Shown here: positions 5,244 through 59,455 of the stretch, piece after piece
Numbering within the stretch: the stretch's first letter is position 1
Layout of the letters: the number at the start of each line of letters is the position of its first letter
Assembly (NCBI GenBank): GCA_041665345.1
Contig: JBAYJA010000005.1
Location: 2,913-66,912 of the forward strand
Source: Patescibacteria group bacterium
Lineage (GTDB): Bacteria; Patescibacteriota; Patescibacteriia; PEXW01
DNA: 64,000 nucleotides
Direction: 5' to 3'
Translations under genes and position numbers: made by a program
The notes under the pieces: generated by a model
What the model saw: only the letters and a program-made list of their open reading frames with translations
The model's database searches: none
Told to the model about the DNA's origin: nothing

Positions 5244-5810
5244 ATGATTCCTCAGAAACTCCTTGATGAAGTGGTCGCAGTTGCTCGTCAGCAGGCTGTG
5301 GATTTTGGCACCCCACCATTTCCGCAAACTGAGTACATTAGTATCCAAGGTCAAAATTTAGTAAAAAAACATGGGGCGAATGGAGAAATTGTCTTGGTTG
5401 GAACGTATTTGATGGACGTCATGCTTGGCAAAGCGTTAGCGGAAGGCCAGCGTGAAGAACATATTCAGTGGGGTGAGGATATTGCTACGAAACTCTTTTT
5501 GCAATATTCAGAAATGACAATTGATGAAAAAGAGAACATCCTTTTATGTATTCGCCAGCACCATGGCGGCGTACAATTTCAAACAATCGAAGCAGAGATC
5601 TGTTGTAATGCAGATTGCTATCGTTTTCTCTCAGTACAAGGAATGCTTATTGGTTTAACGAACAGTCGGAAAATGCCAATTGATGCACTGGTGAAATTGT
5701 ACAAAGAAAAGGTTGAAGAAAAGTGGCATGCATTGACCTTGCCAGACTGCAAAACTGCATTATTGCCGCAGTATCAGGCAATTGCAGCGATGCTTCGTGC
5801 GTTTGTATAG
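5244..5810 (+). CDS. hypothetical protein, possibly HD-superfamily
   Basis: ORF begins right after the upstream stop; RQHHGG and scattered His/Asp residues give only a weak HD resemblance. Confidence 0.35.
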   Translation: MIPQKLLDEVVAVARQQAVDFGTPPFPQTEYISIQGQNLVKKHGANGEIVLVGTYLMDVMLGKALAEGQREEHIQWGEDIATKLFLQYSEMTIDEKENILLCIRQHHGGVQFQTIEAEICCNADCYRFLSVQGMLIGLTNSRKMPIDALVKLYKEKVEEKWHALTLPDCKTALLPQYQAIAAMLRAFV

Positions 5811-5825
5811 TATTGTAAGAGTCAT

Positions 5826-6353
5826 TTGCAAGAAATTGATTCCTGCGGCATCCTGAAAGGTATGCCGCTTCGCGTCTACCCAAAAAGAAAACAGATGGTT
5901 TCAACCCGACGACTTCTTGGCTTTGGGTTTGGTGCTTTCGCAATCGTATTGCTTGGAGTTTCGTTGTACCCTGAGAACAAACCAGTAGCAGTTGAAGCAC
6001 AATGCGATACGGTTTCCGTAGCGCAGCAGTATGCCGCGGCTGACCTTGTCCTCACCGGCGAAGTTTTTCTGGTTGTGCCGGATGGTGTTGAAAACGCAAA
6101 GGTGCTCATTACCCCTAGCCGTTTGTATAAAGGTAAAGTACCAGCAATAGGTATTGCCATTGCCGCCAAAGCAGGAGCCAACAAAGTGGAAAGCGATGTG
6201 GCCGGGGAGCTGCACTTTGCTTCAGGCCAACCGCCGTACCTACTCTTTCTCAAGACGGGCGAAAACGGTGTGTACACAACCAGTCGCTGCATGGGGAGCC
6301 GGTTGCTAGGCGAGGGACTGACATCTGAAGAACGAAAAGCGTTTGGTATATAG
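5826..6353 (+). CDS. hypothetical exported or membrane-anchored protein
   Basis: N-terminal hydrophobic segment LLGFGFGAFAIVLLGVSLY; no catalytic motif recognised. Confidence 0.35.
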   Translation: MQEIDSCGILKGMPLRVYPKRKQMVSTRRLLGFGFGAFAIVLLGVSLYPENKPVAVEAQCDTVSVAQQYAAADLVLTGEVFLVVPDGVENAKVLITPSRLYKGKVPAIGIAIAAKAGANKVESDVAGELHFASGQPPYLLFLKTGENGVYTTSRCMGSRLLGEGLTSEERKAFGI

Positions 6354-6408
6354 CAAAAGTGTGTCCTGGTAAAAAAAGAGACCTCTATTGCGAGGTCTCG
6401 GTGTTTGC

Positions 6409-7179
6409 TTATGCAAACGAACGGTTGTAGTAGGTCAGATCTAGGCGCCCGTTGCTGCCCTGGTCTGGTATACCAGTGTAGAGCGTAGCTCCGCAGTTGA
6501 TCGGTTTCTCCTCCTCATCAATTCGGTTGAACTCATGTTCATCCAAGCGCTCCAGATTCGCGCGTAAAGCTAGGATGGTTAAGTGGTGACTGACCACGAG
6601 AATTTTTTTCCCGGAAAAGTCGCGCGTAAGGGTGTTCAACCAGGAACGGACTCGTTCCCGTACGTCTGGAACATTCTCTCCCTGCTGCCAGCGAAACCAA
6701 TACGGGCCTTCCTGTTCGTACAAACGCCGTTGCTCTGGGTAGAAAGCAAAGTATATACGCCAGTCGTTGTAGAGCAGTGATAATCCGTGTTCGAGTTCTC
6801 GAATACGTTCTTCCTCAACCATTTTTACGTTTGCAAGTTCTGGCCAACCTTTCTGTAAACCGACTAGCGTGCTCTTCGTTCGTTCGTATGGTGAGCAGAA
6901 AATGAGTTCAGGTGCCGCTATTTGGTCTCTTAGGTTTTGACCAGTTATTACCGCACGTTTTGCTTCAGCGTCTGCAAGGGGCGTTCGACAGTCCGCTACT
7001 TCCAATTTATACCGAAGATGCAAAAGCATAGCAAGCGCGCGCGTTTCCGGAGATTCAGGATTTTCTTCGTACGCTAGTTTGAAGCGATCATACTCCGGGT
7101 CTTGCGCCTTCAATTCCCGTAGTCGGTTGAATTTTGACGTGTCGTGCCGGAGGAACAATATGTAGTTCGGCCATTTCAT
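6409..7179 (-). CDS. histidine phosphatase family protein (phosphoglycerate mutase-like)
   Basis: N-terminal LFLRHDTS (RHG-type catalytic motif variant) and a downstream VVSHHLTI motif. Confidence 0.55.
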   Translation of the reverse strand: MKWPNYILFLRHDTSKFNRLRELKAQDPEYDRFKLAYEENPESPETRALAMLLHLRYKLEVADCRTPLADAEAKRAVITGQNLRDQIAAPELIFCSPYERTKSTLVGLQKGWPELANVKMVEEERIRELEHGLSLLYNDWRIYFAFYPEQRRLYEQEGPYWFRWQQGENVPDVRERVRSWLNTLTRDFSGKKILVVSHHLTILALRANLERLDEHEFNRIDEEEKPINCGATLYTGIPDQGSNGRLDLTYYNRSFA

Positions 7180-29516: not shown

Positions 29517-29790
29517 AGTAGTTACGAATTACGAATACGGTTACGAATTACGAAATAGAGACACGTCACCGCTCTGAGCGGGATCCCGCCTTCTTTAGCT
29601 CAGGTGCAGAAAGTGGCGGGAAAAATACGAATGGGGAAAGATTAGATAGAAGAAGAGCTATTGTCCTTCACCCAATCCGTTCTCCCCTTACCAAGGGGAG
29701 GGGCGGAGGGATAACCCTACTGAGAAAAACCTGACCCTTAAAAGAAAGATTATTACAACTGGCGTGATCTCTACAGCTCTATGGCTTTAC
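29517..29790 (-). repeat. modular intergenic repeat, copy E1 (TTCGTAA heptad array plus G-rich modules)
   Basis: ttacgaattacgaatacggttacgaattacgaa directly abuts the gdhA ATG; atacgaatggggaaag and ccccttaccaaggggagggg modules are shared with the other copies. Confidence 0.55.
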
Positions 29791-31535: not shown

Positions 31536-31960
31536 TCATTACGAAATACGAAAAAAGATACGAATATACGAATTACGAAATAAAGGAGATACGCCCCGCG
31601 GAGCGGGGTCCGGCTTCGCCGGAAATATACGAATATACAAATGGGGAGAGGACGGGGGTAACTCCGAGTGCGGGTCTCTGTGCCCGCAGCTCGACCCGGG
31701 ATGGATTGGAGGATGGGGAGGGTTTGGGTGTAGAGGCTTGTTAGGTTGGAAGGTTAGGGTATGGGCTTCAGAAGGACAGACCCTTTCTTCCAAACCCTAC
31801 ACCCTAACGAGCATCCATACCCTTGCCTACCTCACCGGTCACTTTCCGAGCCGGCCACCGGCCCGGAGAGTGACCGACCCAGGTTCCACCCCGGGCTCCC
31901 TCCGGGGCAGAGCCCGCCCCAGAGGGAGGGAGGACAGAAAAGCCACGCCTCGTTGCTACT
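31536..31960 (-). repeat. modular intergenic repeat, copy E2
   Basis: Heptads (ttacgaaatacgaa...atacgaattacgaa), the conserved double hairpin gatacgccccgcggagcggggtccggcttcgccgga (31585..31625), GGGGAG/GGGTTTGGGTGTAG G-rich modules, and cctaacgagcatccatacccttgc at the far end. Confidence 0.6.
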
Positions 31961-37575: not shown

Positions 37576-37815
37576 ATAGGGTTACGAATTACGAAAAGAT
37601 ACTACGAAAATACGAATGTACGAATGGGGATACGCCCCGCGGAGCGGGGTCCGGCTCCGCCGGAAATTACGAATGGGGAGGGTGGGAATACGGGACTCAA
37701 GATTGTAGAGTGTCTCCCTCGCCCTCTGAGGGAGAGAGAGGGTTGGTTATGGTTCCCAGCGCGGGTGTCCCTGCCCGCGCTGGACTGGGGATGGTTGGAG
37801 GGTGAGGGGTAGGTA
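37570..37815 (-). repeat. modular intergenic repeat, copy E3
   Basis: gttacgaattacgaaaagatactacgaaaatacgaatgtacgaatgggg; double hairpin gatacgccccgcggagcggggtccggctccgccgga (37627..37665); G-rich modules. Confidence 0.6.
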
Positions 37816-38228: not shown

Positions 38229-38663
38229 TTATTTCACTAATATCCTAAGGATGAGTACGGGTATGCCGAACACAATCCCTAAGACAAGCAGTGTGAGTCC
38301 AACAGCAAGCACGATATTGAAAGCAAATGCAGCGATTGGAGTTACCACAAGAACTTTCCAACTCTTTGCAAAACCTTCCCAAAAACTGTCGCCACCCTGC
38401 CATCCACCAATTTGGACAACTCCGTACATTGTAAAAATGTACAAGGCTGTCCAGTAAGGTATGTAAAACAAAGGCGCATACGGACCGAGTGCGTTTGGAT
38501 GACATGGATCCGAAGGAACGTGGATAGTGAACCCCAGAATTATGACCCCTAACCATACTGGGACAAAGCCAACAAAGAAACGGAAGCGGTAATGAGGGAA
38601 GAGGTCCTTATATAACTGGTGTAGCTGGTACAATTTTCTTCGTAAAAAAATAGGTGCTGGCAT
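38229..38663 (-). CDS. hypothetical membrane protein (144 aa)
   Basis: Four predicted transmembrane helices. Confidence 0.35.
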   Translation of the reverse strand: MPAPIFLRRKLYQLHQLYKDLFPHYRFRFFVGFVPVWLGVIILGFTIHVPSDPCHPNALGPYAPLFYIPYWTALYIFTMYGVVQIGGWQGGDSFWEGFAKSWKVLVVTPIAAFAFNIVLAVGLTLLVLGIVFGIPVLILRILVK

Positions 38664-38795
38664 GCAACCTCCTTTATTCAGTTTTCAAAGTTTTTTGTTA
38701 TTAACCAAGCAGTATATTATTGAAAGTGCATTTTGTCAATAATCTTCTTATGAAATGTTGACAAATTATCAATATTCTATATAATATATACATTA

Positions 38796-39572
38796 TTGAC
38801 GAAAATATTCGTCATCAATATGACTGAGCTGCAAACCCAATTGCGTACCCTTGGTTGGCCGGATAAGCAGATTACTGTGTACTCTGCCCTTTTGGGCTTA
38901 GGATCCGCAGGTGCGTCAGAAATTGCTGAAGGAGTGAAGCTCCCCCGGCAGACTGTCTATAGCCTTCTCTCCGAACTCCTGGAAAAAGAAGTTATCGAGC
39001 AAAGTGACCAACAAGGGGTGAAGCAGTTTGTGGCAAATCCAGACGCGTTGCTACTTCGTCTAGAGAAAGACCAGCTACAATTGCAAAAAACCAAGACCGA
39101 GTTAGCTGCAGAACTACCCAAGATTCTTGCCAAGCAACGTCGCAAACCTTCTTACCCGCAGGTGACGTACTACGAAGGGAAAGAAGGTTTGAAACGATTA
39201 TTCAACGGCATTCTCCATTTTTACCAACGTGATGGCGAAAAAGCCTTTCGGGGCTACGGCGTAAACTTCATGAAGCCTGCCCTGGGTGATTTTCTGTACA
39301 CGTTTGTGAAGAAGCGGAGTGAGTATGGAGTGGACACCAAGCTCTTCATTGGTCTGGGGCCAGATGATTTTGGGATAACTGGACCAGAGAACCAACTCCA
39401 GCGAGATATCAAGCGTCTGAACATGCCTGCGGCGAAAGCGGGGGTGTATTTGGTTGGTGATCGGGCGTACCTTTTTTCTTTTGTAGACAATGTGGGTGTC
39501 ATGGTAGAGAACCCGGCAATCGTTGAACTCCTCAAGCGTGCTTTTGATGATCATTGGAAGAAATCCAATTAA
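38796..39572 (+). CDS. TrmB-family transcriptional regulator (paralog 1)
   Basis: N-terminal winged helix (LGLGSAGASEIAEGVKLPRQTVYSLLSELLEKEVIE) plus a roughly 180-aa C-terminal domain. Palindrome TGACGAAAATATTCGTCA overlaps its start region. Confidence 0.6.
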   Translation: MTKIFVINMTELQTQLRTLGWPDKQITVYSALLGLGSAGASEIAEGVKLPRQTVYSLLSELLEKEVIEQSDQQGVKQFVANPDALLLRLEKDQLQLQKTKTELAAELPKILAKQRRKPSYPQVTYYEGKEGLKRLFNGILHFYQRDGEKAFRGYGVNFMKPALGDFLYTFVKKRSEYGVDTKLFIGLGPDDFGITGPENQLQRDIKRLNMPAAKAGVYLVGDRAYLFSFVDNVGVMVENPAIVELLKRAFDDHWKKSN

Positions 39573-39658
39573 CAAAGTGTTACTTGCTTGTTCTTGCCTT
39601 TTCTCAATAATTCTTTAGACTGCAAACAAGAGGAAAGCAAACACGGAAAGGAGAAAAA

Positions 39659-39865
39659 ATGGCTCTCAGTGATTATTGTCCCCCAGACTGGAGTTACTGC
39701 AAATGTGAATGTCATATGACGGCAAGCGATAGTTGCGGGTGCAATTGTCAATTTTGTAACGCCTGTAAGCGCTACATTGCTGGACCTTTCGAAAAACATC
39801 AGCAAGAGGTACACCCAAAAACGGTCTCTCAAAAATGCTGTTCTGGACCAATCTCCATAGTCTAG
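39659..39865 (+). CDS. Cys/His-rich small protein, paralog B of 27178..27552
   Basis: CKCECH-x6-CGCNCQFCNACKRYIAGPFEKHQQEVH, the same motif order as paralog A; 68 aa. Confidence 0.45.
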   Translation: MALSDYCPPDWSYCKCECHMTASDSCGCNCQFCNACKRYIAGPFEKHQQEVHPKTVSQKCCSGPISIV

Positions 39866-39926
39866 TTCCTCGAAGCGCCTCTCCATTGACGGAAAGGCGC
39901 TTTTTTTGTAGAATCATGGCACTCCT

Positions 39927-41918
39927 ATGAATGTTACCGAACTCGCCCGCCGCCTCCGCATTCCTGTCCAAGACCTTCGCCATGCCTTGCCGAAGTTGGG
40001 TTTTGGTATTGGTTCCAAGGCGCACAAGGTTTCCGACGTGGTAGCAACAAAAATTATTGGGAAGCATAAGACTGAGCCTGAACTCTTTGCCCCGGAGAAG
40101 GAAGAGGACGTTATTGAAGTAGCAGAAAAGGCTGCACCGGTTGGCCGCATTGCCATTCCATCTCGCATTACGGTTCGGGAGTTTGCCGCGCGTCTGAACA
40201 AGCCAGCTTCACTGGTTATTTCTCACCTGATGAAAAATGGAATCCTGGCCGCGCTGAATGAGGAAATTGATTTTGATACCGCCTCCATTGTGGGAGCAGA
40301 TTTTGGTGCGGAAGTGCAGCGGCAGCAAGAGCAAACCACGGCCGAGCGGGAAACTGCCATGGCGGATAAAGTTGGGACGCTCATTGCGGCGGATGAAAAG
40401 CGAACCACGGTGCGCCCACCGGTCGTGGTGGTCATGGGCCATGTTGACCATGGGAAAACCAGTTTGCTGGACGCGATCCGAACGGCCAACGTCGCCGGCA
40501 AAGAGCACGGTGGTATTACCCAGCACATTGGCGCCTACCAAGTGACGTTGAACGACCGAGGGATTACCTTCATTGATACGCCGGGGCACGAAGCGTTTAC
40601 GGCCATGCGTTCCCGCGGCGCGAACGTGGCGGACGTGGCCATTGTGGTCATTGCTGCCGATGATGGGATGAAACCTCAGACTCGGGAAGTGCTGAGCATT
40701 GTGGAACGGAACAAGCTCCCATTTGTGGTGGCGATTACGAAGATTGATAAAGACGGTACGAGCGTGGACAAAGTGAAAACGGATTTAGCGTCAATCAACC
40801 TCCAACCGGAGGACTGGGGTGGAAAAGTCATAACCCAAGCGGTCTCCGCGAAAACCGGGAAAGGCATTCCTGAACTTTTGGAATCTGTTCTACTGGTTGC
40901 GGATTTGGAAAAGGACACGCTCCTGGCAAACCCGGATGGGAAATTGGTTGGAACTATTATTGAATCCCACGTGGACCAAGGTGAAGGCCCAGTGGCCACC
41001 ATGATTGTGCAGAACGGTACCCTGCGCCGTGGGGATTTCATTGTGGCTGGCCCAGTGGTGGGGAAAATTCGGAGTTTGAAAGATTGGAATGGGAAGATTG
41101 TCGACGCCGCAGGTCCGTCCATGCCGGTGGTCATCCTGGGACTCAAAGCCGCGCCGTCCGTTGGTGATGTGGTGGAAGCGCCGGAAGATGAACGGGCAGC
41201 CAGAAAACTCATGAAGCAGCAAGAAGCCACGCTGCGCTTGATGCAGGTGAAAGCTCGGGAAGCCTCGCAAACTGCGTCGGTGATTGGCGGCAGCGTGGAC
41301 ACCAAGGACGTGAAGAAGCTTCCACTCTTCCTGAAAGCAGACAAGGTGGGTTCTTTGGAGGCAATTGTGGAAAGCATGAAAGGCTTTGCCTACCCAGATG
41401 TGCAGCCCGTGATTGTGGGCCAAGGTTTGGGCGATATTACCGATGCGGATGTGATGCGCGCCGAACAAGCTGATGCCTGGCTCCTGGGGTTCAACGTGGA
41501 CGTTGGCCAGAAAGCTGTGAGCAATGCGCGCGTACCCGTGAAAACCTTTACCGTCATCTACCAGCTGCTGGATGAAATTCGGGACGGCCTGGCTGCCAAA
41601 CTTGGAGTGGAAATTGTGGAAGAGCCCATTGGCCAAGCTCGGGTGCTCAAGATTTTCCGCCAGGAAGGGAAGGTGACCATTGCCGGCGCCAAGGTCACGG
41701 AAGGTGTGGCCAAAGCAAAGGCACGGGTCAAAGTCTTCCGCAGTGGGAAAGTGCTGGGCGCTGTATCCCTGGATCAGCTGCAGCAGAACAAGCAGAACGT
41801 GGGTGAGGTCGCCACCAACCTGGAGTGCGGTCTGAAACTCAGCGGCCTGGCCGGGATTGTGGAAGGGGACACCTTGCTGTTCACGGAAGAGAAGCAGGTA
41901 GCGAGGAAACTTGAATAG
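39927..41918 (+). CDS. infB: translation initiation factor IF-2 (short N-terminus)
   Basis: GTPase G1 [30 protein letters not shown]; 663 aa. Confidence 0.9.
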
Positions 41919-42049
41919 CGAACAGATAGAAGGTTTGGTTTTCGATAGCGGTATAGATTGAAGGCAAAGGCGAATGAATACCCGTTACCAAAACCGTCCA
42001 CCATCTACCCATACAATAATCCAAACCCAAACCTTCTACCCCTGCAACC

Positions 42050-42424
42050 ATGCCCTCCAAGCGCGTGAACCAACTCAATGCACTGCTCCAGCAAAAACTG
42101 GGCGAACTTTTTTTAACCGAAATCAACTTTGCCGCAGGGACGTTAGTGAGTATTACCCGCGTGGAAACCACGGGTGACATTCGGCACTGCAGCGTGTTCC
42201 TGTCCGTGATGCCAGAGGAGTATGGGAATGGTGTGCTCAATCTCTTGCAAAAGCGCCTGCCCTTTCTGCAGCACGAGCTCATGAAGCGGCTTACCTTGGC
42301 GCGCATTCCGTCGCTCCACTTCCGTCTGGATATCCGGGGCCAAAATGCCGCGCACATGGAAGCATTGCTGGATGAGGTGAAGAAGACGTTGCCGCCGGAG
42401 GAAGAAGTCCAACCGGAAAAGTAA
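42050..42424 (+). CDS. rbfA: ribosome-binding factor A
   Basis: 124 aa; RVNQLNALLQQKLGELF...SITRVETTGDIRHCSVFLSV matches the RbfA KH-like fold; located downstream of infB. Confidence 0.8.
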   Translation: MPSKRVNQLNALLQQKLGELFLTEINFAAGTLVSITRVETTGDIRHCSVFLSVMPEEYGNGVLNLLQKRLPFLQHELMKRLTLARIPSLHFRLDIRGQNAAHMEALLDEVKKTLPPEEEVQPEK

Positions 42425-42454
42425 ACTTATTTTTTTGAAAGGAAAAAGGCGAAT

Positions 42455-42480
42455 GCTTGTCAAAAAAGCCTAAGGTGTTC
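42455..42480. terminator. bidirectional terminator between rbfA and CDS 42505..43098
   Basis: aaagcctaaggtgttccctaggcttt hairpin with flanking A- and T-runs. Confidence 0.5.
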
Positions 42481-42504
42481 CCTAGGCTTTGCTCACTCGT
42501 TTAC

Positions 42505-43098
42505 TCATGCGTTTACTGCATGTGCATTAAATCTTGGTACAGGCTTTGGAAGTTCTTGCTCATGGACCAAGCTCCAGGAACGGAATTCCAAGCAGCCAAT
42601 AGGAGTGTACGTCTCTTCATCCAGAGTATTGAAGAACTCCCTCCGTCCGGTAAAATCCAGAAAGTCCCCCGTATTTTTCGATTGAATGTACACGCATGGC
42701 AGGCCACCACCACCCATAATCCCGATGGATCTGCGCATCGGCTCTCTTTGCAGTACATCCAACAGCTCAAAGTCCACCACGGCCTGTAATTGACTGGGGA
42801 ACGTGCCCTGGTAGTGCATAGTCCAGACCGGCGTGCCGTCCACGTAAATGGTCATGGTGCCGGTGACATTTCCTGAGACCTCATTCCGGGAAAATGTGTC
42901 CCACATCTCAAAGCTTCTTGGTTCGGGCGGGAAGAAGTACTTCTGGTGATGGTAGTACCAGACGCCTGGCTCCAGGGGGTGTGGTAGTGCTTTGACCCTC
43001 TCTGGATCACGCATTCGTCGTCGTATTGCCTCGCGAAAGAATTCTCGCACCTCGTATACCATGGCGCGGAAGACTTCATTTGCATCATTGTCCGGCAT
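42505..43098 (-). CDS. hypothetical protein (197 aa)
   Basis: Long ORF; no motif recognised. Confidence 0.4.
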   Translation of the reverse strand: MPDNDANEVFRAMVYEVREFFREAIRRRMRDPERVKALPHPLEPGVWYYHHQKYFFPPEPRSFEMWDTFSRNEVSGNVTGTMTIYVDGTPVWTMHYQGTFPSQLQAVVDFELLDVLQREPMRRSIGIMGGGGLPCVYIQSKNTGDFLDFTGRREFFNTLDEETYTPIGCLEFRSWSLVHEQELPKPVPRFNAHAVNA

Positions 43099-43182
43099 TG
43101 TGTCCTCAACTTTCAGTTTGTGAACGTTCAGTATGTTTAGAGCTATCCTAGATTGCTGGGGAATGGTTTGTCAAATAAAAAA

Positions 43183-43220
43183 AAGCGCCAGGTTGTCCGG
43201 GCGCTTAGAGCTATTTTTTT
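43183..43220. terminator. terminator hairpin family copy 1 (conserved loop GGTTGTCCGGGCGC)
   Basis: aaaaaaaagcgccaggttgtccgggcgcttagagctattttttt. Confidence 0.5.
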
Positions 43221-43228
43221 GCGAGCAC

Positions 43229-43483
43229 TTACGTGAAGTCTTTTACTCCGAAGGATTCTGAGGGTAGCATGGCCGATAAAGCATCTTGCACTTTTTCTCG
43301 GTCACCTATGGCGAGCACTCGCGCATGCCCACCCCAAGAATGCCAATCTACGTGTTTCTTGCCAGTTACTCGCCTGACCTCTTGAATGACACTCTCGAAA
43401 TCCGGTGGTGTGGATTTTGAGTAGAGTAGAGCTACGCATGAACCAAGGTGCCAAACAAGTCTACTGCACCTGTTTGCTGGCAT
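43229..43483 (-). CDS. hypothetical protein (84 aa)
   Basis: ORF bracketed by two copies of the terminator hairpin family. Confidence 0.3.
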   Translation of the reverse strand: MPANRCSRLVWHLGSCVALLYSKSTPPDFESVIQEVRRVTGKKHVDWHSWGGHARVLAIGDREKVQDALSAMLPSESFGVKDFT

Positions 43484-43566
43484 ATATGACCTCCTCGTTA
43501 CTTTTGTTTTTTCACTGCTACTTTACCACCCACAAACATTGTGTCAATAAAATTGTTTGTAAGTAA

Positions 43567-43593
43567 AAAGCGCCAGGTTGTCCGGGCGCTTTT
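43567..43593. terminator. terminator hairpin family copy 2
   Basis: aaagcgccaggttgtccgggcgcttttt; 27 nt identical to copy 1. Confidence 0.5.
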
Positions 43594-43608
43594 TGGAAGG
43601 TTCTTCGA

Positions 43609-43935
43609 TTAGTCGGTTTTTAACCACCCGATGTAGCGCTGAAGGATTGGTGCCTGCAGATCTCTCCGATCCAACGCGTCCTTCGCCCGTTGGACAAGTG
43701 CTCCTTCAAGAGGTGCACCGCATTCTTGGAGTCTTTTTTCGTACTTCTGCAGCAATGCTCGTAGGGCAGGGATTTCATACGGCTGAATAGCCCTGACAAA
43801 GTCTGGATTCTCAGCTTTTTCATGTACAGCAACTAAGAAGTTAGATCTCGTCGTCAGTATTTCCTTGAGTATTCTAAAATTTTCTCTCTCGACTTCTTCT
43901 TGTTGTTCAGGGCTTAATGAATAAAACATAACCAC
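43609..43935 (-). CDS. hypothetical protein (108 aa)
   Basis: ORF only. Confidence 0.3.
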   Translation of the reverse strand: MVMFYSLSPEQQEEVERENFRILKEILTTRSNFLVAVHEKAENPDFVRAIQPYEIPALRALLQKYEKRLQECGAPLEGALVQRAKDALDRRDLQAPILQRYIGWLKTD

Positions 43936-44308
43936 GTAGAGCTCCTTTCGATGTTGTTTTTGTATTTAAGCTAATTCTCCTGTTTGAATCCTCCTTTTCA
44001 CCTCCCTCCATTCTTCAGCCGAGAGCACAATAACTTTTTCGGGTTCACTTGACTGTCGTAGCGCTTTCCCGCCATCTGGAGTTTCTGCAATCTCCAGGCA
44101 GCTGCCAATGACACAGCTAAATTTTAATGACTCATGCATTATTCCTCCGATTGTGTTGATGTAAAAAAAGAACCTGTTCGTCTCTACTCTATGAACAGCG
44201 GAAGCAGAGCGCCAGACGTGAGAAGCGTTACGAATATTTACCCCTAAGGTTAGCGGAGAATCAGCATAAATAATTGACAATATTCTTGTCACTTAATATC
44301 ATAAGGTT

Positions 44309-45115
44309 ATGCCACCCATGCCTACAAAATTTTTTCAGCTCCTCAACCTCTCAGCAGTTGAGCAAAAGATTATTCTGCAACTGCAGGTACACGCTTCAAT
44401 GACGGTCTCAGCATTAGCCCGGGAGATTGCGATACCACGAACAACGACACATTTTCTCCTCAAGAACTTGGAACGACGTGGCTTATTACACCGAGTGAGG
44501 GTCGGAAAGCATGGAGAATGGAGCCTTGCGGATTCAGCAGTGATAACCAACCAGCTCCAAATTGGGCTGCAACTATTTTCCCATGCAAAGAACCTGGGCG
44601 AGCGGGTTGTCCTGGGAGATAACGTTGTGCAGTATTCTCAGGGTCTGCACAACATTCAAACAACCTACACAGCATTGCTGCGGGCACATGTTGGGGAAAG
44701 AATTTACTTTATCCAGGGAACACAATCCGCCAAAATCGCGCTGCAAAATCTTTCACCGGAATTCTTCCAGAAGTTTCATGCGCAGATAAAGAAGCGAAGA
44801 ATTATCCTGGAAGGGATTGGGAGCACAGAGCTGCTTGCGCTATTTCACACCCTCGATAAAAAAGCGTTGGCCTCACACCAAGGACGCCCATTGATTACCT
44901 CGTTGGTTCCCAGCCGTTTTCTTCGTCCGGATATTGATGTGCTCATTTTCCGTTCCACGCTCTACGTCATAAATATGAAGAAGGAAACGCTGCTGACTTT
45001 GGAAAGTGAGGAGGTGGCAGATGTCCTCAAAAATTTTCTGGCATACATTCTTGCCGGTGAGCGGCGTATGAATGTGAATGAGTATGTCCAGCAACTGCTT
45101 GAGCGGAAGAAATAA
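44309..45115 (+). CDS. TrmB-family transcriptional regulator (paralog 2)
   Basis: N-terminal winged helix LSAVEQKIILQLQVHASMTVSALAREIAIPRTTTHFLLKNLERRGLL. Palindrome TTGACAATATTCTTGTCA sits 25-45 nt upstream. Confidence 0.6.
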   Translation: MPPMPTKFFQLLNLSAVEQKIILQLQVHASMTVSALAREIAIPRTTTHFLLKNLERRGLLHRVRVGKHGEWSLADSAVITNQLQIGLQLFSHAKNLGERVVLGDNVVQYSQGLHNIQTTYTALLRAHVGERIYFIQGTQSAKIALQNLSPEFFQKFHAQIKKRRIILEGIGSTELLALFHTLDKKALASHQGRPLITSLVPSRFLRPDIDVLIFRSTLYVINMKKETLLTLESEEVADVLKNFLAYILAGERRMNVNEYVQQLLERKK

Positions 45116-45145
45116 AAAAGCACTCGGTTGTCCGGGCGCCTTTTT
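45114..45145. terminator. terminator hairpin family copy 3
   Basis: aaaaaagcactcggttgtccgggcgccttttt; the loop core ggttgtccgggcgc is shared with copies 1 and 2. Confidence 0.45.
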
Positions 45146-45158
45146 AGAAAAGTGCAAT

Positions 45159-45926
45159 CTACGGTTTCTTCGCAACGAACTGTATGAAGGCTGGGTGCCC
45201 CCACGGACTCCCTGCCCACAGCGCGCTTTTGGCAATGTGCTCTGGCCGGACGTACGTGTCTTGCCGGCGGATAACTTCCAATCCTGCTTCGCGCAGCAGA
45301 CGTGGGAATAGATCCTCCGGGTGGTACCACACTTCTGAGACGAAGACATCGCCGTGGATATTCATGTAGCGCTCCTCGAACTTCTGCGACCGTGTAAGCG
45401 GAACGTTTGGCTCTACTGGTTTGTACTGTACCCATTTTGCATGGCCGGTACGGGTTGGCGATGTGGATTGGTACAAGAATGGGTGCATGATACTCACCAC
45501 TAGCCGTCCACCTGGCCTGAGGACGTGTGAGGCATTCAGAAAAAATGCTGCACACTCCTTGGGGCTGTCGTGAATAAGTACTGCTGCGCAGAAAACTGCG
45601 TCAGCATCATGAACGTAGGGAAAGAGACTTTGGGTAATGTCTCCCATGCAGTAGCCCTCCACTTTTGGGTCAGCTTGTTCTCGTTGCCTTGCTCGGGCTA
45701 ACATTTTTTCGCTCCGATCAATGCCAACCACGCATGCGCCACTATCAGCGATGACCCGGGTCAGCAGACCTTCACCACAGCCCGCGTCAAGAATGAGCTC
45801 ACCAGGCTGTGGGTTGAGCAGCTCCACTGCCGGAACGCGACCCAGCCAGTCACCCATGACGGTCCAACCCAGGCGGGATTTCCAGAAGTCAGTCTGCTCT
45901 TCGTACGGTTTCTGCGTGTTATCCAT
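45159..45926 (-). CDS. class I SAM-dependent methyltransferase
   Basis: ILDAGCGEGLLTRVIADSGACVVGIDRSEKM (motif I) and a downstream acidic motif. Confidence 0.6.
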   Translation of the reverse strand: MDNTQKPYEEQTDFWKSRLGWTVMGDWLGRVPAVELLNPQPGELILDAGCGEGLLTRVIADSGACVVGIDRSEKMLARARQREQADPKVEGYCMGDITQSLFPYVHDADAVFCAAVLIHDSPKECAAFFLNASHVLRPGGRLVVSIMHPFLYQSTSPTRTGHAKWVQYKPVEPNVPLTRSQKFEERYMNIHGDVFVSEVWYHPEDLFPRLLREAGLEVIRRQDTYVRPEHIAKSALWAGSPWGHPAFIQFVAKKP

Positions 45927-46041
45927 TTTTCAATCCTCTCGTTTTTGGTTTTTTATCCTTCTCCCAACCAACAATTTTATTTGCGTTCTGGGAGAAGTCC
46001 CCATGTTTTGATAAGTGATCGACAAACATGGGGGTGAATTA

Positions 46042-46629
46042 TTATTTTCTAGAGTTTGGCACTGCAGCAAATACACATTCGTGACAATGGACCGCGTTTA
46101 AGTAAAGGCTACACAACCAGGGCTTCTGATGTATCAAACGAATGTAAGGTACAATTTTTCCTGGTGAAATGCTGACAGAATTGAGAGCAAAAATTGGTCG
46201 TTCACACAGAATTTTTCGCTGCTCTCCAAAAGCAAGGAGTTCTTGGAGGTTTGCTGGACGATACCCACATTTCTCCAGTAACCATCTCACATCATCAGCA
46301 TCACCACATTCGGTGTCAAACTGTACTAGCTTCAATGTAATGGAGTGCGTGCCACCGCCGGTTCGTGGAAAGTTCACTTCATGTATTTCCGGATCGACAT
46401 TACCATATTTCCCGGCAGCGATGTATTGACCAATGGAACGATTCATATTGACTATCAGCCGAACTGAATCAATATACGCTGTGATTGAGTGTTCTGGTTC
46501 AGTAACATCTGTTAGGCCAGTGAATTCGACACCATACGTGCCAAAACGGAAGGTTGGTTTTCTTACTCGTCTCGATTTTGAAATGACGATTACTTTTTTG
46601 CGCATTGTTGTACTATGCCATCCTTTCAC
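46042..46629 (-). CDS. hypothetical protein (195 aa)
   Basis: ORF only. Confidence 0.35.
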   Translation of the reverse strand: MKGWHSTTMRKKVIVISKSRRVRKPTFRFGTYGVEFTGLTDVTEPEHSITAYIDSVRLIVNMNRSIGQYIAAGKYGNVDPEIHEVNFPRTGGGTHSITLKLVQFDTECGDADDVRWLLEKCGYRPANLQELLAFGEQRKILCERPIFALNSVSISPGKIVPYIRLIHQKPWLCSLYLNAVHCHECVFAAVPNSRK

Positions 46630-46780
46630 AATGTTTTTTCTTTTATTTCATTTTTAACAAAGAAGTATAAAGAAGAGTTTAGATATTGTCAATGCTTTAA
46701 GCAAAATATTAAAGTGGAATTGACAAAATGGCTAAAATAAGCTAAAATTGTGATATAGTATTTGTCATAATCTTCGTCAA

Positions 46781-47554
46781 ATGAACATTCAAGAGGCATT
46801 AACGCACTTTGGACTCAATGAAAAGGAGGCTGGGGTATACCTTGCTGCTCTTGCTTTAGGGAGGGCGAAAGGTCAGGAAGTTGCAAGAAATGCTGGGTTA
46901 CCACGTTCCACCACGTACAGCATTCTGGATACGCTGGTGCAGAAGAAGCTCATTCTTACCCTGGACGACCGCAAAGTGCGTGAGTATGCAGCAGAAGACC
47001 CTGACAAGTTGGTGGAACAAAGCGAAGCAGCCTACCGCACCATGAAAGCCGCGCAACCGGATTTGGCGGCGCTGTTCCGGGGGGCGAAGAACCGGCCGCG
47101 GGTGCGGTACTACGACGGGTTGCAGGCAATTAAGGGTATGTACGAGGGGATTTTGCTCCAGCGGAAGAAGGGGCTGAAAGACTACCAAGTCATTGCTTCC
47201 GAATCCGCTTTCCTTAGCCGTGATCGGGAGTGGTTTACCAATTTTGTGAAGCGCCGAGCAGCGTTTGGCATGCACTCGCGGTTAATTCTGGAAGCCAGTG
47301 AAGATACCCGGCAAAAGCAAAAAGAGGAAAAGGAGATTAATTCAGAAATCCGGATTTTGGACAACTTTTACGAACAGCGGAGCAAGGCGGGAATTTACAT
47401 TTTGCTGAAGAGTGTCATTTTTGTGGAGTACACCAAAAACCCCGTGGCCGTGGAAATGGAGAGTAAAGAACTGGTTTCCATGCACCGCATGCTGTTTGAA
47501 GCCCTGTGGAAGACTTTGCCCGCAGCTTCGCAGCCTGCGCTGCAGTCCACGTAA
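46781..47554 (+). CDS. TrmB-family transcriptional regulator (paralog 3)
   Basis: N-terminal winged helix LNEKEAGVYLAALALGRAKGQEVARNAGLPRSTTYSILDTLVQKKLI. TTGTCAA...TTGACAA inverted repeats lie upstream. Confidence 0.6.
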   Translation: MNIQEALTHFGLNEKEAGVYLAALALGRAKGQEVARNAGLPRSTTYSILDTLVQKKLILTLDDRKVREYAAEDPDKLVEQSEAAYRTMKAAQPDLAALFRGAKNRPRVRYYDGLQAIKGMYEGILLQRKKGLKDYQVIASESAFLSRDREWFTNFVKRRAAFGMHSRLILEASEDTRQKQKEEKEINSEIRILDNFYEQRSKAGIYILLKSVIFVEYTKNPVAVEMESKELVSMHRMLFEALWKTLPAASQPALQST

Positions 47555-47614: not shown

Positions 47615-48196
47615 ATGAAAAAGCTACTCTGTGTCGTTGACTACCAAAATGACTTTGTCAGCCCTGACGGGAAGGTAGCCAAGCAGCTGGGCAATGACAA
47701 GCTACTGAAAGCGCAGGCACTACTGCCAAAAATTCAGCAGCTGCTTGATGCCTGGCACAAGCGTTCAGATCCTGTGCTTTTTCTGCAGTCAGACTACAGC
47801 CTGAAAAATTACAAAGCGTCTTTTCAGGAGGGGAGGAAGAATAGTGCGTACAGCAATGCAGCAATCGTTGGCACCTGGGGGCATGCACTTTTCGGGCTGC
47901 AACCGGCTGCTTCTGATGCACGCTTGGTCAAACTGTATTTCGATGGTTTCTACCAATCTGCTTTGGAAGACACGCTTGTGAAGCAAGAAATTACCGACGT
48001 GTATTTTTGTGGCATTAATACCGATGTTTGCGTGTTCCACACGGCAATTGGTGCAATCGTCCGCGGCTATCGTTCCTACGTCATTGAGGATGCAACCGAG
48101 ACCGTTTCAAGCGCTGAGCAGAAAGCCATATTCTTGCAATACTTGAAGAACTATGTCGGCGTGCAGATCGTACCCTTACGTGATGTACTTCTATGA
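47615..48196 (+). CDS. isochorismatase-family cysteine hydrolase (nicotinamidase-like)
   Basis: LLCVVDYQNDF (catalytic Asp), K residue, and CGINTDVCV (catalytic Cys). Confidence 0.7.
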   Translation: MKKLLCVVDYQNDFVSPDGKVAKQLGNDKLLKAQALLPKIQQLLDAWHKRSDPVLFLQSDYSLKNYKASFQEGRKNSAYSNAAIVGTWGHALFGLQPAASDARLVKLYFDGFYQSALEDTLVKQEITDVYFCGINTDVCVFHTAIGAIVRGYRSYVIEDATETVSSAEQKAIFLQYLKNYVGVQIVPLRDVLL

Positions 48197-49023
48197 CTGA
48201 AAATTTCCAAGAACTGTACAACCCAGAAAACGCACCAGAGTGGAATGAAGAGAAGACCATGGAGCATGCTTCCGGGATCTGGGGCAGGGATCCAATGCTT
48301 CAATACCTCCGAGATGAAGTGATTAAGCCCGGAGATAAAGTCCTGGATATTGGCTCTGGCGCAGGGTACCCATCTGCCCGAATGGCAGAGATGGTAGGAA
48401 AAGATGGAACCGTGGTTGGCCTGGAGTACAGCAAATCTATGCTGGGCATTGCTGATGATGAAAAAGGTGAACCAGCGAGTAAGAAGTATGAGGCACTGAA
48501 GCAGCTGATGTTCATCAATGGTGATGCCACAAACATGCCCATACAAGAAAAATCTTTTGACGTTGCCACGTCTTTTATGGTGCTGCACAATTTGGAGCTT
48601 CCACAAGTGCAGAAAGTACTTCAGGAAACTGCCCGGGTTCTCAAACCTGGCGGCAAGGCAGTGTTTCTTACCATGCATCCGGATATGCTGGAGTCAGATT
48701 GGAAATTAGACTTCATGGAATATCCTGACGATGCTATTGCCGCCTACAAGGCACTGGAAGAAAAGGAGGGATTCCGATTAAGCGGGAAAGTGAAAAATGC
48801 TGGTGGGGGTGAAAAGCAGATTGGCTTGGTGGTACATACCCGGGAAAATATGCAGCAGGCCATTGCACAAGCCGGGTTAGAGCTTGCACATGAAGAAGGA
48901 TATTTTATTGATGCCGACACAGCAGCCGAAAAGTTTGGTGAAAATGCATCGCGGGTAATGCCAACCACGCCAACTTTTTGGAAATTGGAATTGGTGAAGC
49001 CGGAAAGCACTGAAGCAAGCTAA
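48193..49023 (+). CDS. class I SAM-dependent methyltransferase
   Basis: VLDIGSGAGYPSARMAE (motif I); ATGA overlap with the upstream gene. Confidence 0.6.
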   Translation: MTENFQELYNPENAPEWNEEKTMEHASGIWGRDPMLQYLRDEVIKPGDKVLDIGSGAGYPSARMAEMVGKDGTVVGLEYSKSMLGIADDEKGEPASKKYEALKQLMFINGDATNMPIQEKSFDVATSFMVLHNLELPQVQKVLQETARVLKPGGKAVFLTMHPDMLESDWKLDFMEYPDDAIAAYKALEEKEGFRLSGKVKNAGGGEKQIGLVVHTRENMQQAIAQAGLELAHEEGYFIDADTAAEKFGENASRVMPTTPTFWKLELVKPESTEAS

Positions 49024-49088: not shown

Positions 49089-50066
49089 ATGACCGACCAC
49101 ACTGCCAGCTACCGCGCAATTCACCGCGCCATTACCGAAGCCAAAGAGGTGCTCCTCATTGCCCACCAGAAACCGGACGGGGATACCCTGGGCGCGAATT
49201 TGGCCATGGCTAACTGGTTGCGGGATCAAGGCAAGCATTTCCATATTTTTTGCGCGCATCCGGTGCCGTCACACTACCAGTTCTTGCCCTTGTGGGAGCA
49301 TGTGAAGAGCACCGAAGAGGAAATTGCCCACATCCCATTCAACGTTGTGGTGGCCCTGGACTCTTCCAGCCTGGATTATGCCGGCGCGACTTCTTTAGTT
49401 GCAAAACTAAAAGGGAGTCCGACGATTATCAACATTGACCACCACGGTACCAACCCGCACTTTGGGGATATGAATATTGTGGAACCCACTGCGTCGTCCT
49501 GTTCTGAATTGGTGTATAAATTTTTGGATCACCATCGCATTCACATTAGCCAAGAAATTGCTACCTGCTTGCTCACCGGCATTCTCACAGACACGGGTGG
49601 TTTCAGCAATCTGGGCACCACCACTGATGCGGTGGAAATTGCTGGTACCCTCATGCGGCGTGGCGCTAAGTTCCGCACAATTACAGAAAACACTGTGCGG
49701 AATAAGTCCGTGAACACCCTGAAGCTCTGGGGCATTGCCTTGGACCGGCTGACACAGCATGCGGATGGGCTGGTGAGTACAGTCATCACCCAGGCTGATT
49801 TGGATGCGTGTGGTGCAGTGGAAGAAGATATGGAAGGTGTAGCAAATTTTCTCAACGCCCTGCAAGACGCCAGAATGGTGATGGTGCTGAAAGAGCGTGA
49901 GGGTGTGGTGAAAGGGAGTTTACGTACGACGCAGGCTGATGTGGACGTGGCCGAGTATGCCAAGAAGCACTTTGGCGGTGGTGGTCACAAAAAAGCCGCG
50001 GGCTTTGCCGTGCCGGGTCATCTGGTACAAACGCCGGATGGCTGGCGAGTGCAACCAAATACGTAA
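49089..50066 (+). CDS. nrnA: DHH/DHHA1 phosphoesterase (NrnA-like bifunctional oligoribonuclease/pAp phosphatase)
   Basis: DGDTLGA, IDHHGTN (DHH motif), and C-terminal GGGH (DHHA1). Confidence 0.75.
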   Translation: MTDHTASYRAIHRAITEAKEVLLIAHQKPDGDTLGANLAMANWLRDQGKHFHIFCAHPVPSHYQFLPLWEHVKSTEEEIAHIPFNVVVALDSSSLDYAGATSLVAKLKGSPTIINIDHHGTNPHFGDMNIVEPTASSCSELVYKFLDHHRIHISQEIATCLLTGILTDTGGFSNLGTTTDAVEIAGTLMRRGAKFRTITENTVRNKSVNTLKLWGIALDRLTQHADGLVSTVITQADLDACGAVEEDMEGVANFLNALQDARMVMVLKEREGVVKGSLRTTQADVDVAEYAKKHFGGGGHKKAAGFAVPGHLVQTPDGWRVQPNT

Positions 50067-51379: not shown

Positions 51380-51680
51380 TCCGCTTCGCCAAGGGTTTTG
51401 TGAGGGTTTGTGGTAGAGCAAGGGTTTGGATGCTCGTTAGGACGTTGGGTTGGGAAGGAGGGTGATACATTTTCGAAAAACACACCCAACCTTCCAACTC
51501 CACCTGGCGCTTCAACAAAACCTCTTTCCCTCTCCCTTGTTCCCTCTCCCTCAAAGGGCGAGGGAGACGTTCTGCAATCTTGTGTACCGTATTCCTATCC
51601 CTCTCCATCTTCATTCGTATCCCTTTTCGTAATTCGTAACCGGGTTGACTTTTCCCCCAAACCGCAGTATACCTTCAAGA
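51380..51680 (+). repeat. modular intergenic repeat, copy E4 (oriented toward clpP)
   Basis: gcaagggtttggatgctcgttagg...ggttgggaagg...ccctctccct...cattcgtatcccttttcgtaattcgtaa, immediately followed by the TTGACT -35 box. Confidence 0.6.
51645..51673 (+). promoter_or_regulatory. sigma70-type promoter of clpP
   Basis: TTGACT - 17 nt - TATACC; 95-nt leader before the ATG at 51769. Confidence 0.45.
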
Positions 51681-59212: not shown

Positions 59213-59455
59213 GTGCGGCAAGGGTTTGGATGCTCGTTAGGGTTTAGGGTATGGAAGGGGGGAGATTTTCTTGGAGGTTGCACCAATCTTTCGTCACGAA
59301 GGCAAGCTTCTCCTGGTAAGCATTACCCCTCCGCACCTCCCCTTAGTAAAGGGGAGGACGGGTTTTGTGGTGAAAGCTCAAGACTCTTCCTATTCGTAAT
59401 TCGTACTTTCGTAGCATCTATTCGTATTTCGTAACTGTATTCGTATATTTGACGA
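59213..59455 (+). repeat. modular intergenic repeat, copy E5 (oriented toward pilT)
   Basis: gcaagggtttggatgctcgttagggtttagggtatggaagg...cccctccgcacctccccttagtaaaggggagg...ctattcgtaattcgtactttcgtagcatctattcgtatttcgtaactgtattcgtat, abutting the TTGACG -35 box. Confidence 0.6.

Follow-up and report, generated by a model that had tools for sequence, protein, structure and literature searches.

The window analysed here, a 64-kb genome fragment (~50% G+C) from a member of the candidate phyla radiation (CPR)/Patescibacteria (contig JBAYJA010000005.1), carries three plus-strand genes for putative transcriptional regulators related to the archaeal protein TrmB, each with a dyad at its own promoter that may serve as its operator. 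The genes are P1 (38820..39572, 250 aa), P2 (44309..45115, a divergent family member of 268 aa, or 265 aa from Met4 in the database call) and P3 (46781..47554, 257 aa), and their verbatim matches in the public databases are annotated as 'helix-turn-helix domain-containing protein' of Patescibacteria group bacterium. An initial annotation of this DNA had placed three TrmB-like genes of ~260 aa at 38796, 44309 and 46781; all three do encode TrmB-type winged-helix proteins, but the first start was wrong. The TTG at 38796, taken from a mechanical list of open reading frames (ORFs), is ruled out as the start of P1 by an identical database protein (P0013, 250 aa) and by the N-termini of all orthologues, which align at the ATG at 38820. 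With this ATG as the true start, the dyad of P1 stands clear of the gene, ending 5 nt before it.

Family membership and fold of the three proteins

The TrmB domain PF01978 (IPR002831) was recovered with 42.3 bits in P1 and 47.5 bits in P3, while P2 reached 25.5 bits, 0.1 bit under the Pfam gathering cutoff of 25.6; in hhalign, full-length P2 aligned to the profile of the P1 family with 94% probability over 232 columns, and its other Pfam matches were HTH_IclR (28.1 bits) and a weak MarR_2. The recognition helix reads LPRQTVYSLL in P1 and LPRSTTYSIL in P3, and pairwise identity amounts to 31% between P1 and P3 and 18% between P2 and P1. At the sequence level the C-terminal domain had no Pfam or NCBIfam match, including none to the TrmB C-terminal domain, and the NCBIfam equivalogs TrmB, TrmBL1 and TrmBL2 covered only the N-terminal ~80–110 residues, with 13–26 bits against cutoffs of 530–650. 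A profile of P1 homologues had TrmB (3QPH) and TrmBL2 (5BOX/5BPD/5BQT) as its best solved relatives over the winged helix-turn-helix (wHTH) and the following helix, the alignment to 3QPH covering residues 7–108 with the long helix included. The AlphaFold model of P1 (predicted local distance difference test score, pLDDT, 90.1) consists of a wHTH (residues 1–72), a continuous helix (74–105, pLDDT ~90) and an alpha/beta domain (114–248); searched with Foldseek as a whole chain, it matched TrmBL2 (E 1e-10, 257–275 columns) and TrmB 3QPH (E 2e-7, 253 columns), and the C-terminal domain alone also matched PLD-like folds (PPK, vaccinia F13).

The sugar-binding C-terminal subdomain that marks the TrmB/TrmBL1 subgroup was not found in the three proteins, which have 250–268 aa compared with ~340 aa. 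From the profile, AlphaFold and Foldseek matches together, the architecture is therefore TrmBL2-like, i.e., that of TrmB minus the sugar-binding subdomain: an N-terminal wHTH, a helix of ~30 residues and a TrmBL2-like C-terminal domain of PLD-like fold, an arrangement that the three proteins share. The helix after the wHTH is probably the dimer interface. P1, P2 and P3 are divergent paralogues within a very large Patescibacteria family of ~250-aa TrmB-type regulators, for which an exhaustive profile search returned 17,285 cluster representatives (50% identity clusters) at E ≤ 1e-3, 9,411 of them with E ≤ 1e-10; a single 20-kb stretch can hold as many as four paralogues (loci L086 and L015). 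Many members of the family outside the window (P0059, P0065, P0074, P0077 and P0124 among them) have a length of 380–1,080 aa; in these, one wHTH plus helix is followed by 2–7 tandem C-terminal (PLD-like) domains of ~135 aa, so that protein lengths rise in steps of ~135 aa.

Dyads, their conservation and their co-variation with the recognition helix

The promoters, located by consensus scan, are near-perfect and sigma-70-type. P1 has a predicted promoter TTGACA-16-TATAAT with 12/12 consensus positions (38758..38785, +), and its candidate operator is a perfect 7+4+7 dyad of 18 nt, TGACGAA-AATA-TTCGTCA (38797..38814), at about +5 to +22 of that promoter and 5 nt before the ATG; apart from one unrelated site, this exact pattern does not recur in the window with up to two mismatches. 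For P2 the candidate is a 6+5+6 dyad of 17 nt, TGACAA-TATTC-TTGTCA (44275..44291), which overlies the -35 and the spacer of the predicted promoter TTGACA-17-TATCAT (44274..44302, +; 11/12), the left arm being the -35 hexamer; with 6 nt between the -10 box and the ATG, P2 mRNA would have little or no leader. P3 is preceded by TTGACA-17-TAAAAT (46720..46748, +; 11/12) and, at about +8 to +24 of this promoter, by an imperfect dyad of 17 nt, TGTCAT-AATCT-TCGTCA (46763..46779), ending 1 nt before the ATG. The whole P3 element, TTTGTCATAATCTTCGTCAA at 46761–46780, is no clean palindrome: its core is TGTC-N9-GTCA, and the extended arms ATTTGTC/GTCAAAT agree at 6/7 positions, the mismatch being the central T/A of the TG(T/A)C core. 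The initial annotation had described all three sites by a single 7+4+7 consensus, which only P1 fits; that a dyad stands at each promoter was correct, with the P1 site at 38797 instead of 38799 and the P3 site imperfect. What the three do have in common is the pattern TG(A/T)C-N9/10-G(A/T)CA over 17–18 nt at each promoter. It occurs six times in the 64 kb, about the number expected from composition, and three of the six lie no more than 20 nt from the three TrmB start codons (binomial estimate about 1e-7). Palindromic candidate operators at or near core promoter elements, as is typical of the TrmB family, were present in all three cases.

The more distal TTGTCAA...TTGACAA pairs (46686/46720 upstream of P3, 38732/38758 upstream of P1) were rejected as operators or auxiliary operators, and the P3 pair had been proposed as one in the initial annotation. 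They are the back-to-back -35 hexamers of divergent promoters, each with a 16–17 nt spacer and its own -10 box. Upstream of P1, the arm 'TTTGTCAA' is the -35 of a minus-strand promoter TTGACA-17-TATACT (38711..38739, -), and upstream of P3 the 'TTGTCAA' arm is the -35 of another TTGACA-17-TATACT (46664..46692, -).

That the dyads should recur upstream of orthologues was borne out for P1 and P3. The P1-type set comprised nine independent genes (43–63% identity). The 22-sequence alignment used for a genome scan offered no conserved stretch to query with, and a rerun with eight closer sequences led to seven loci; the P1-type genes of 43–53% identity, seven in number, come from GTDB genomes and a metagenome locus. 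One contig (L002/L003) carries orthologues of both P1 (63%) and P3 (72%) with the order P1-infB-rbfA ... P3-DHH kept. The dyad TGACGA-N6/7-TCGTC(A/G) was present in 9/9 independent P1 orthologues, 5–23 nt before the ATG, and its arms are invariant in the nine lineages, while the spacer, the flanks and the promoter hexamers diverge. Among the P3 orthologues (62–78% identity), L002, L092, L004 and L093 all keep TTTGTC...CG(T/A)CAAATG as well as the promoter; in L002, L004 and L093 the site reads TTTGTC(A/T)-N7-CGTCAAATG, and in L092 it is of the fully symmetric type TGTCAT-ATTTT-TCGACA, so the central T/A of the right half is tolerated. A relative of P3 with 43% identity (L094) has a perfect TGTCGA-TATTG-TCGACA. 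In this locus (~340–420) two family-type dyads were seen, TGTCAA-TAGTT-TTGACA just 5' of the -35 and the perfect one 3' of the -10. P2 has a single orthologue in 5.8 billion proteins (L084, 88% identity, in a split ORF), which keeps TTGACAACATTCTTGTCA upstream, a weakly informative match at 88% identity. In L084, a close relative, the split (5682–6489) divides the gene into ORFs of 104 and 162 aa (a frameshift, a pseudogene or an assembly error), and the gene sits directly upstream of a DHH gene, in the place that P3 takes in other relatives; neither P1 nor P3 was found in the fetched stretch of L084. Comparison of sequences thus speaks strongly for the P1 and P3 sites, whereas P2 has thin support.

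The analysis was extended to the family by a metagenome scan with the P3 profile (489 confirmed relatives, 80 loci kept); 115 family genes were located and 101 non-redundant upstream regions used. An unbiased inverted-repeat finder often chose AT-rich noise and was replaced by expectation-maximisation (EM) motif discovery and a TG...CA-anchored search. By eye, nearly all family upstream regions have a dyad of the type TGTCGA-N5-TCGACA or TTGTCA-N6-TGACAA near the start, and EM from several seeds arrived at one palindrome, TTGTC(A/G)AAAWTTT(T/C)GACAA (10.3 bits). Held-out scores in a two-fold cross-validation reached ≥ 12 bits in 39% of family upstream regions; among 627 control upstream regions, taken from the same loci, 1.6% did so (a 24-fold difference). 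At ≥ 10 bits the shares were 46% and 4%. Across 871 kb, 36 of the 48 sites with ≥ 14 bits fall within 150 nt upstream of family genes, a space that makes up 1.8% of the sequence. When the motif was run over the window, the P3 site was the best match (15.8 bits) and the P2 site the third (12.9 bits); P1 scores lower because its dyad has 18 nt and not 17 nt. The two highest non-self matches in the window (58825, 19384), which were the ones inspected, lie within coding sequence and were discarded as regulon members, and no regulon beyond the own operon was seen in the sampled DNA (the window and the 871 kb of loci).

The half-site, moreover, varies with the type of protein encoded next to it. When the genes of ~100 loci were sorted by a four-residue stretch of the recognition helix, the one around its invariant Arg, and compared by Fisher tests, the PRQT helix of the P1 clade went with an 18-nt TGACG dyad (8/9 vs. 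0/92, p = 4e-11), KRPT with a 17-nt TGTCA dyad (9/9 vs. 13/92, p = 2e-7) and KRTT with a 17-nt TGTCG dyad (9/18 vs. 7/83, p = 1e-4); in smaller groups, NRIT went with TGTAGA...TCTACA and NRTTGY with TGTGGAAA...TTGACA. The co-variation of regulator and operator suggested as a check in the initial annotation was thus seen in ~100 family members, and at 25–50% protein identity neutral intergenic DNA would not be retained. No other observation argues as strongly for each protein reading the site beside its own gene as this match between half-site type and recognition helix.

Neighbouring genes and heptad arrays

A minus-strand gene for a 144-aa membrane protein (38229–38663, -) is divergent from P1, and a small membrane protein is also the divergent neighbour of the P1-type gene in L002, L085, L087 and L089. 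Other divergent genes, with N-terminal sequences that look like LivK-type substrate-binding proteins (L088 4912–6075, -; L015 6573–7691, -; L090 531–1622, -), lie next to distant P1-type orthologues and may be co-regulated targets. On the 3' side, P1 is followed by infB and rbfA (39927..42424, +). In the window infB has a predicted promoter of its own, TTGACG-17-TAGAAT (39886–39914), and in L002/L003 the gap between P1 and infB is 45 nt. A functional tie of P1 to infB-rbfA as a general rule was dismissed, the linkage being present only in the window and L002/L003 and not in L085–L090 or L015. Between P1 and infB lies a small cysteine-rich ORF of 68 aa (39659–39865, +; MALSDYCPPDWSYCKCECHMTASDSCGCNCQFCNACKRY..., 13 Cys), which is preceded by the Shine-Dalgarno-like GGAAAGGAG and is absent in L002.

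The divergent neighbour of P3 is a minus-strand gene of 195 aa (46042–46629, -). Between the divergent -35 boxes upstream of P3 lies a short palindrome that differs per orthologue, namely GCTTTAAGC in the window (46694–46702), TACTTAGGCTAAGTA in L002 and CCTTGGCCAGG in L004, an equivalent being less clear in L092 and L093. Downstream, an isochorismatase-family gene (47615–48196, +), a methyltransferase (48193–49023, +) and a DHH/DHHA1 phosphoesterase (49089–50066, +) follow on the same strand with short gaps and are probable operon partners of P3; DHH/DHHA1 stands directly after P3 in L002, L004 and L092. Next to P2, a 108-aa gene (43966–44292, -) has been called from a GTG within the P2 dyad; its true form is probably ~55 aa from an internal Met (MHESLKFSCVIGSCLEIAETPDGG...), and the L084 counterpart has 54 aa. 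At the Rfam gathering threshold, nothing but tRNAs was found in the window.

The window also holds five arrays of the heptad TTCGTAA/TTCGTAT, three on the minus strand (29523–29553, 31540–31578, 37583–37623) and two on the plus strand (51615–51638, 59394–59445), and TTCGTAA as such occurs 22 times vs. 6 expected. Three of the five end 1–6 nt upstream of a sigma-70-like -35 (the junctions read TTCGTAA-CCCTA-TTGACA-17-TATCAT, TTCGTAA-CCGGG-TTGACT and TTCGTATA-TTTGACG-17-TAGAAT), and the arrays look like promoter-upstream elements or factor-binding arrays. A GC-rich, hairpin-forming element, GATACGCCCCGCGGAGCGGGGTCCGGCT(T/C)CGCCGGAAA, stands beside two of them (~31585–31625 and ~37635–37672) and may be a small repeated or mobile element. 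The initial annotation had raised the idea that one of the paralogues binds these arrays (there named E1–E5) and so controls the adjoining promoters. TTCGTAA is one base off the P1 half-site TTCGTCA, the array at 59394–59445 abuts a -35 that reads TTGACGAA, identical to the left half-site of P1, and TrmB is able to use a half palindrome at one promoter (PMC4158304). However, the base that sets the two apart belongs to the GTCA core, as its C (G on the other strand), and is among the most conserved positions of the motif; the arrays are 7-nt direct repeats and lack the geometry of a 17–18 nt dyad, with a full dyad in 0/5; and no array was found in the related loci L002 and L004 (P1 and P3 with their operators) or L084 (P2), which keep regulators and operators. 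Since the repeats are direct, the core base is replaced and the arrays are absent from syntenic loci, the link is unsupported and we regard it as very improbable.

Putative autoregulation and its alternatives

We consider it likely that P1, P2 and P3 are negatively autoregulated, binding as dimers to their own 17–18 bp dyads and being released by a ligand. Each protein would sit as a dimer on its own TG(A/T)C-N9/10-G(A/T)CA site, with a distance of about one helical turn between the centres of the half-sites. The P1 and P3 dyads lie just 3' of the -10, where a bound dimer would cover the transcription start and the early transcribed region, and the P2 dyad lies where it would cover the -35 hexamer and the spacer; occupancy of either kind would block RNA polymerase, which makes negative autoregulation the expected outcome. 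Control at P3 would probably reach the downstream isochorismatase, methyltransferase and DHH genes, and in close relatives of the window P1 probably controls infB-rbfA too. Release of the repressor would come from a ligand of the C-terminal sensor domain. We infer binding of the own site, dimerisation, repression as its effect and ligand control from the fold of the proteins, the presence, position and conservation of the sites, their enrichment across the family and their co-variation with the recognition helix. Autoregulated paralogues with related but distinct operators, as the initial annotation had proposed, are in this respect supported by conservation among orthologues and by co-variation, autoregulation itself being a deduction from sequence.

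Several observations weigh against this interpretation. The co-variation tests ignore phylogeny, and the family motif was derived from regions of the sort that it then scored, which is mitigated only by the two-fold cross-validation. With essentially one orthologue, conservation of the P2 site is uninformative, and one arm of that site is no more than a consensus -35. An asymmetric site such as that of P3 (TGTC...GTCA) fits a symmetric homodimer more poorly; as the right half of the P3 site is identical to the half-site of P1, cross-regulation may occur. TrmBL2, which is nearest in structure, is moreover reported to be a largely non-specific chromatin protein (PMC3031468).

The dyads could be real operators and yet be read by another paralogue, or by one master member of the family; P1, for instance, might bind the TTCGTCA half of the P3 site, or P3 a site upstream of P1. 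A TG(A/T)C core is common to the three sites, the right half of the P3 site (TTCGTCAA) is the P1 half-site, TTTGTCAATAATCTTC upstream of P1 resembles the P3 site TTTGTCATAATCTTCGTCA, and a P3-like TTTGTCAAGTATATTTCGTCA lies ~90 nt upstream of the P1 orthologue in L085. We nevertheless think such sharing unlikely: the half-site class follows the helix of the adjacent gene over ~100 loci, P1-type dyads stand in loci with no P3 orthologue seen nearby, L084 has P2 but neither P1 nor P3 in the fetched locus, and the TTTGTCAA upstream of P1 is accounted for by the divergent -35 box. That the dyads are by-products of promoters, a coincidence of AT-rich DNA and TTGACA -35 boxes with no dedicated repressor site, is true of the distal TTGTCAA/TTGACAA pairs. 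It also keeps some plausibility at P2, where the -35 doubles as the left arm and a weak minus-strand -35 (9/12) can be read in the right one, and gains something from TTGACRAA, found 14 times in the window vs. 6.9 expected, largely at promoters. For the dyads as a group it is improbable, given that those of P1 and P3 lie 3' of the -10, where no promoter hexamer is expected, that the P1 arms (TGACGA) stay invariant in nine lineages in which the promoter hexamers, spacer and flanks diverge, and that the 24-fold excess at 12 bits was measured against controls that also have promoters. The dyads might, finally, act as RNA hairpins in 5' untranslated regions, affecting mRNA stability or translation, and the P1 dyad would indeed form a 7-bp leader hairpin 5 nt before the AUG (-7.4 kcal/mol, z = -2.6). 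The P3 element does not fold, though (-2 kcal/mol, z = 0), transcription is not expected to include the P2 dyad, which overlaps the -35, the P1 arms are kept in sequence and not just in pairing, with no compensatory changes, and the partner in co-variation is a DNA-reading helix; we give this explanation the least credence of all.

Autorepression by dimers also has parallels among described systems. The archaeal regulators TrmBL1 (Pyrococcus furiosus) and Tgr (Thermococcus kodakarensis) bind a 6-N5-6 palindrome, TATCAC-N5-GTGATA (TGM), with repression where this site coincides with or follows the start of transcription, and Tgr has been proposed to be autoregulated (PMC4158304). They share with the CPR proteins the TrmB wHTH, and their 17-nt site geometry and position match those of P2, P3 and most of the CPR family; by this analogy the dyads most likely mediate autorepression by dimers. 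In contrast to the CPR proteins, with their bacterial sigma-70-type promoters and ~250 aa, TrmBL1 and Tgr are archaeal proteins of ~340 aa that include a C-terminal subdomain for sugar binding and govern a large glycolytic regulon, and their half-site TATCAC is unrelated to the CPR TGTCGA/TGACGA. TrmBL2 (TK0471/PF0496; 5BOX, 5BPD) is the best full-length structural match (Foldseek E 1e-10, ~260 aa) and has the same three-part architecture without a sugar-binding subdomain. It differs in being described as a chromatin-like, global repressor that binds DNA largely non-specifically (PMC3031468), whereas the CPR proteins, 14–16% identical to it, have private dyads that co-vary with the recognition helix, which on sequence grounds argue for specific DNA binding and not for TrmBL2-type coating. 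TrmB itself (P. furiosus/T. littoralis; 3QPH), the founding member, has the PF01978 wHTH and a coiled coil, and a palindromic operator, TACT-N3-AGTA, over promoter elements from which repression is released by a ligand (PMC4158304); it differs in its ~340 aa, its sugar-binding effector domain and the length and sequence of its operator. MarR/IclR-type autorepressed wHTH dimers likewise have 16–20 bp dyads over their own -35/-10 or +1, often with a divergent neighbour, but use other dimerisation and ligand domains, the full-length fold here being that of TrmBL2/TrmB and not of MarR or IclR.

The control logic, an autorepressed wHTH dimer on a dyad operator, is thus textbook, while the specific family, its operators and its apparent recognition code are undescribed: a full-text literature search found no paper that pairs TrmB with Patescibacteria, the candidate phyla radiation or Saccharibacteria, and the PF01978 literature that surfaced was almost all archaeal. 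Patescibacteria have few recognisable transcription factors, and to our knowledge gene regulation in CPR/Patescibacteria is almost unstudied. For the window, the outcome is a clarification at the annotation level, with three putative autoregulated repressors, their predicted promoters and candidate operators and a corrected start codon. If the operators are real, an uncultivated lineage would have a concrete, testable set of regulators and operators, the motif shared across the family could serve to predict regulons in thousands of metagenome-assembled genomes, and ~100 natural regulator/operator pairs would be at hand for deriving a recognition code. More tentatively, and on balance somewhat doubtfully, Patescibacteria may have expanded an archaeal-type, TrmBL2-like scaffold into one of their main regulator families, in which nearly all paralogues would have a private self-operator with a half-site predicted by the xRxT motif of the recognition helix; the code would then pair PRQT with TGACGA, KRTT with TGTCGA, KRPT with TGTCAG/A and NRIT with TGTAGA. 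Were this true, nature would have supplied a protein-DNA recognition code that can be read from sequence, along with a set of orthogonal repressor/operator pairs ready for use in organisms that genetic tools do not yet reach.

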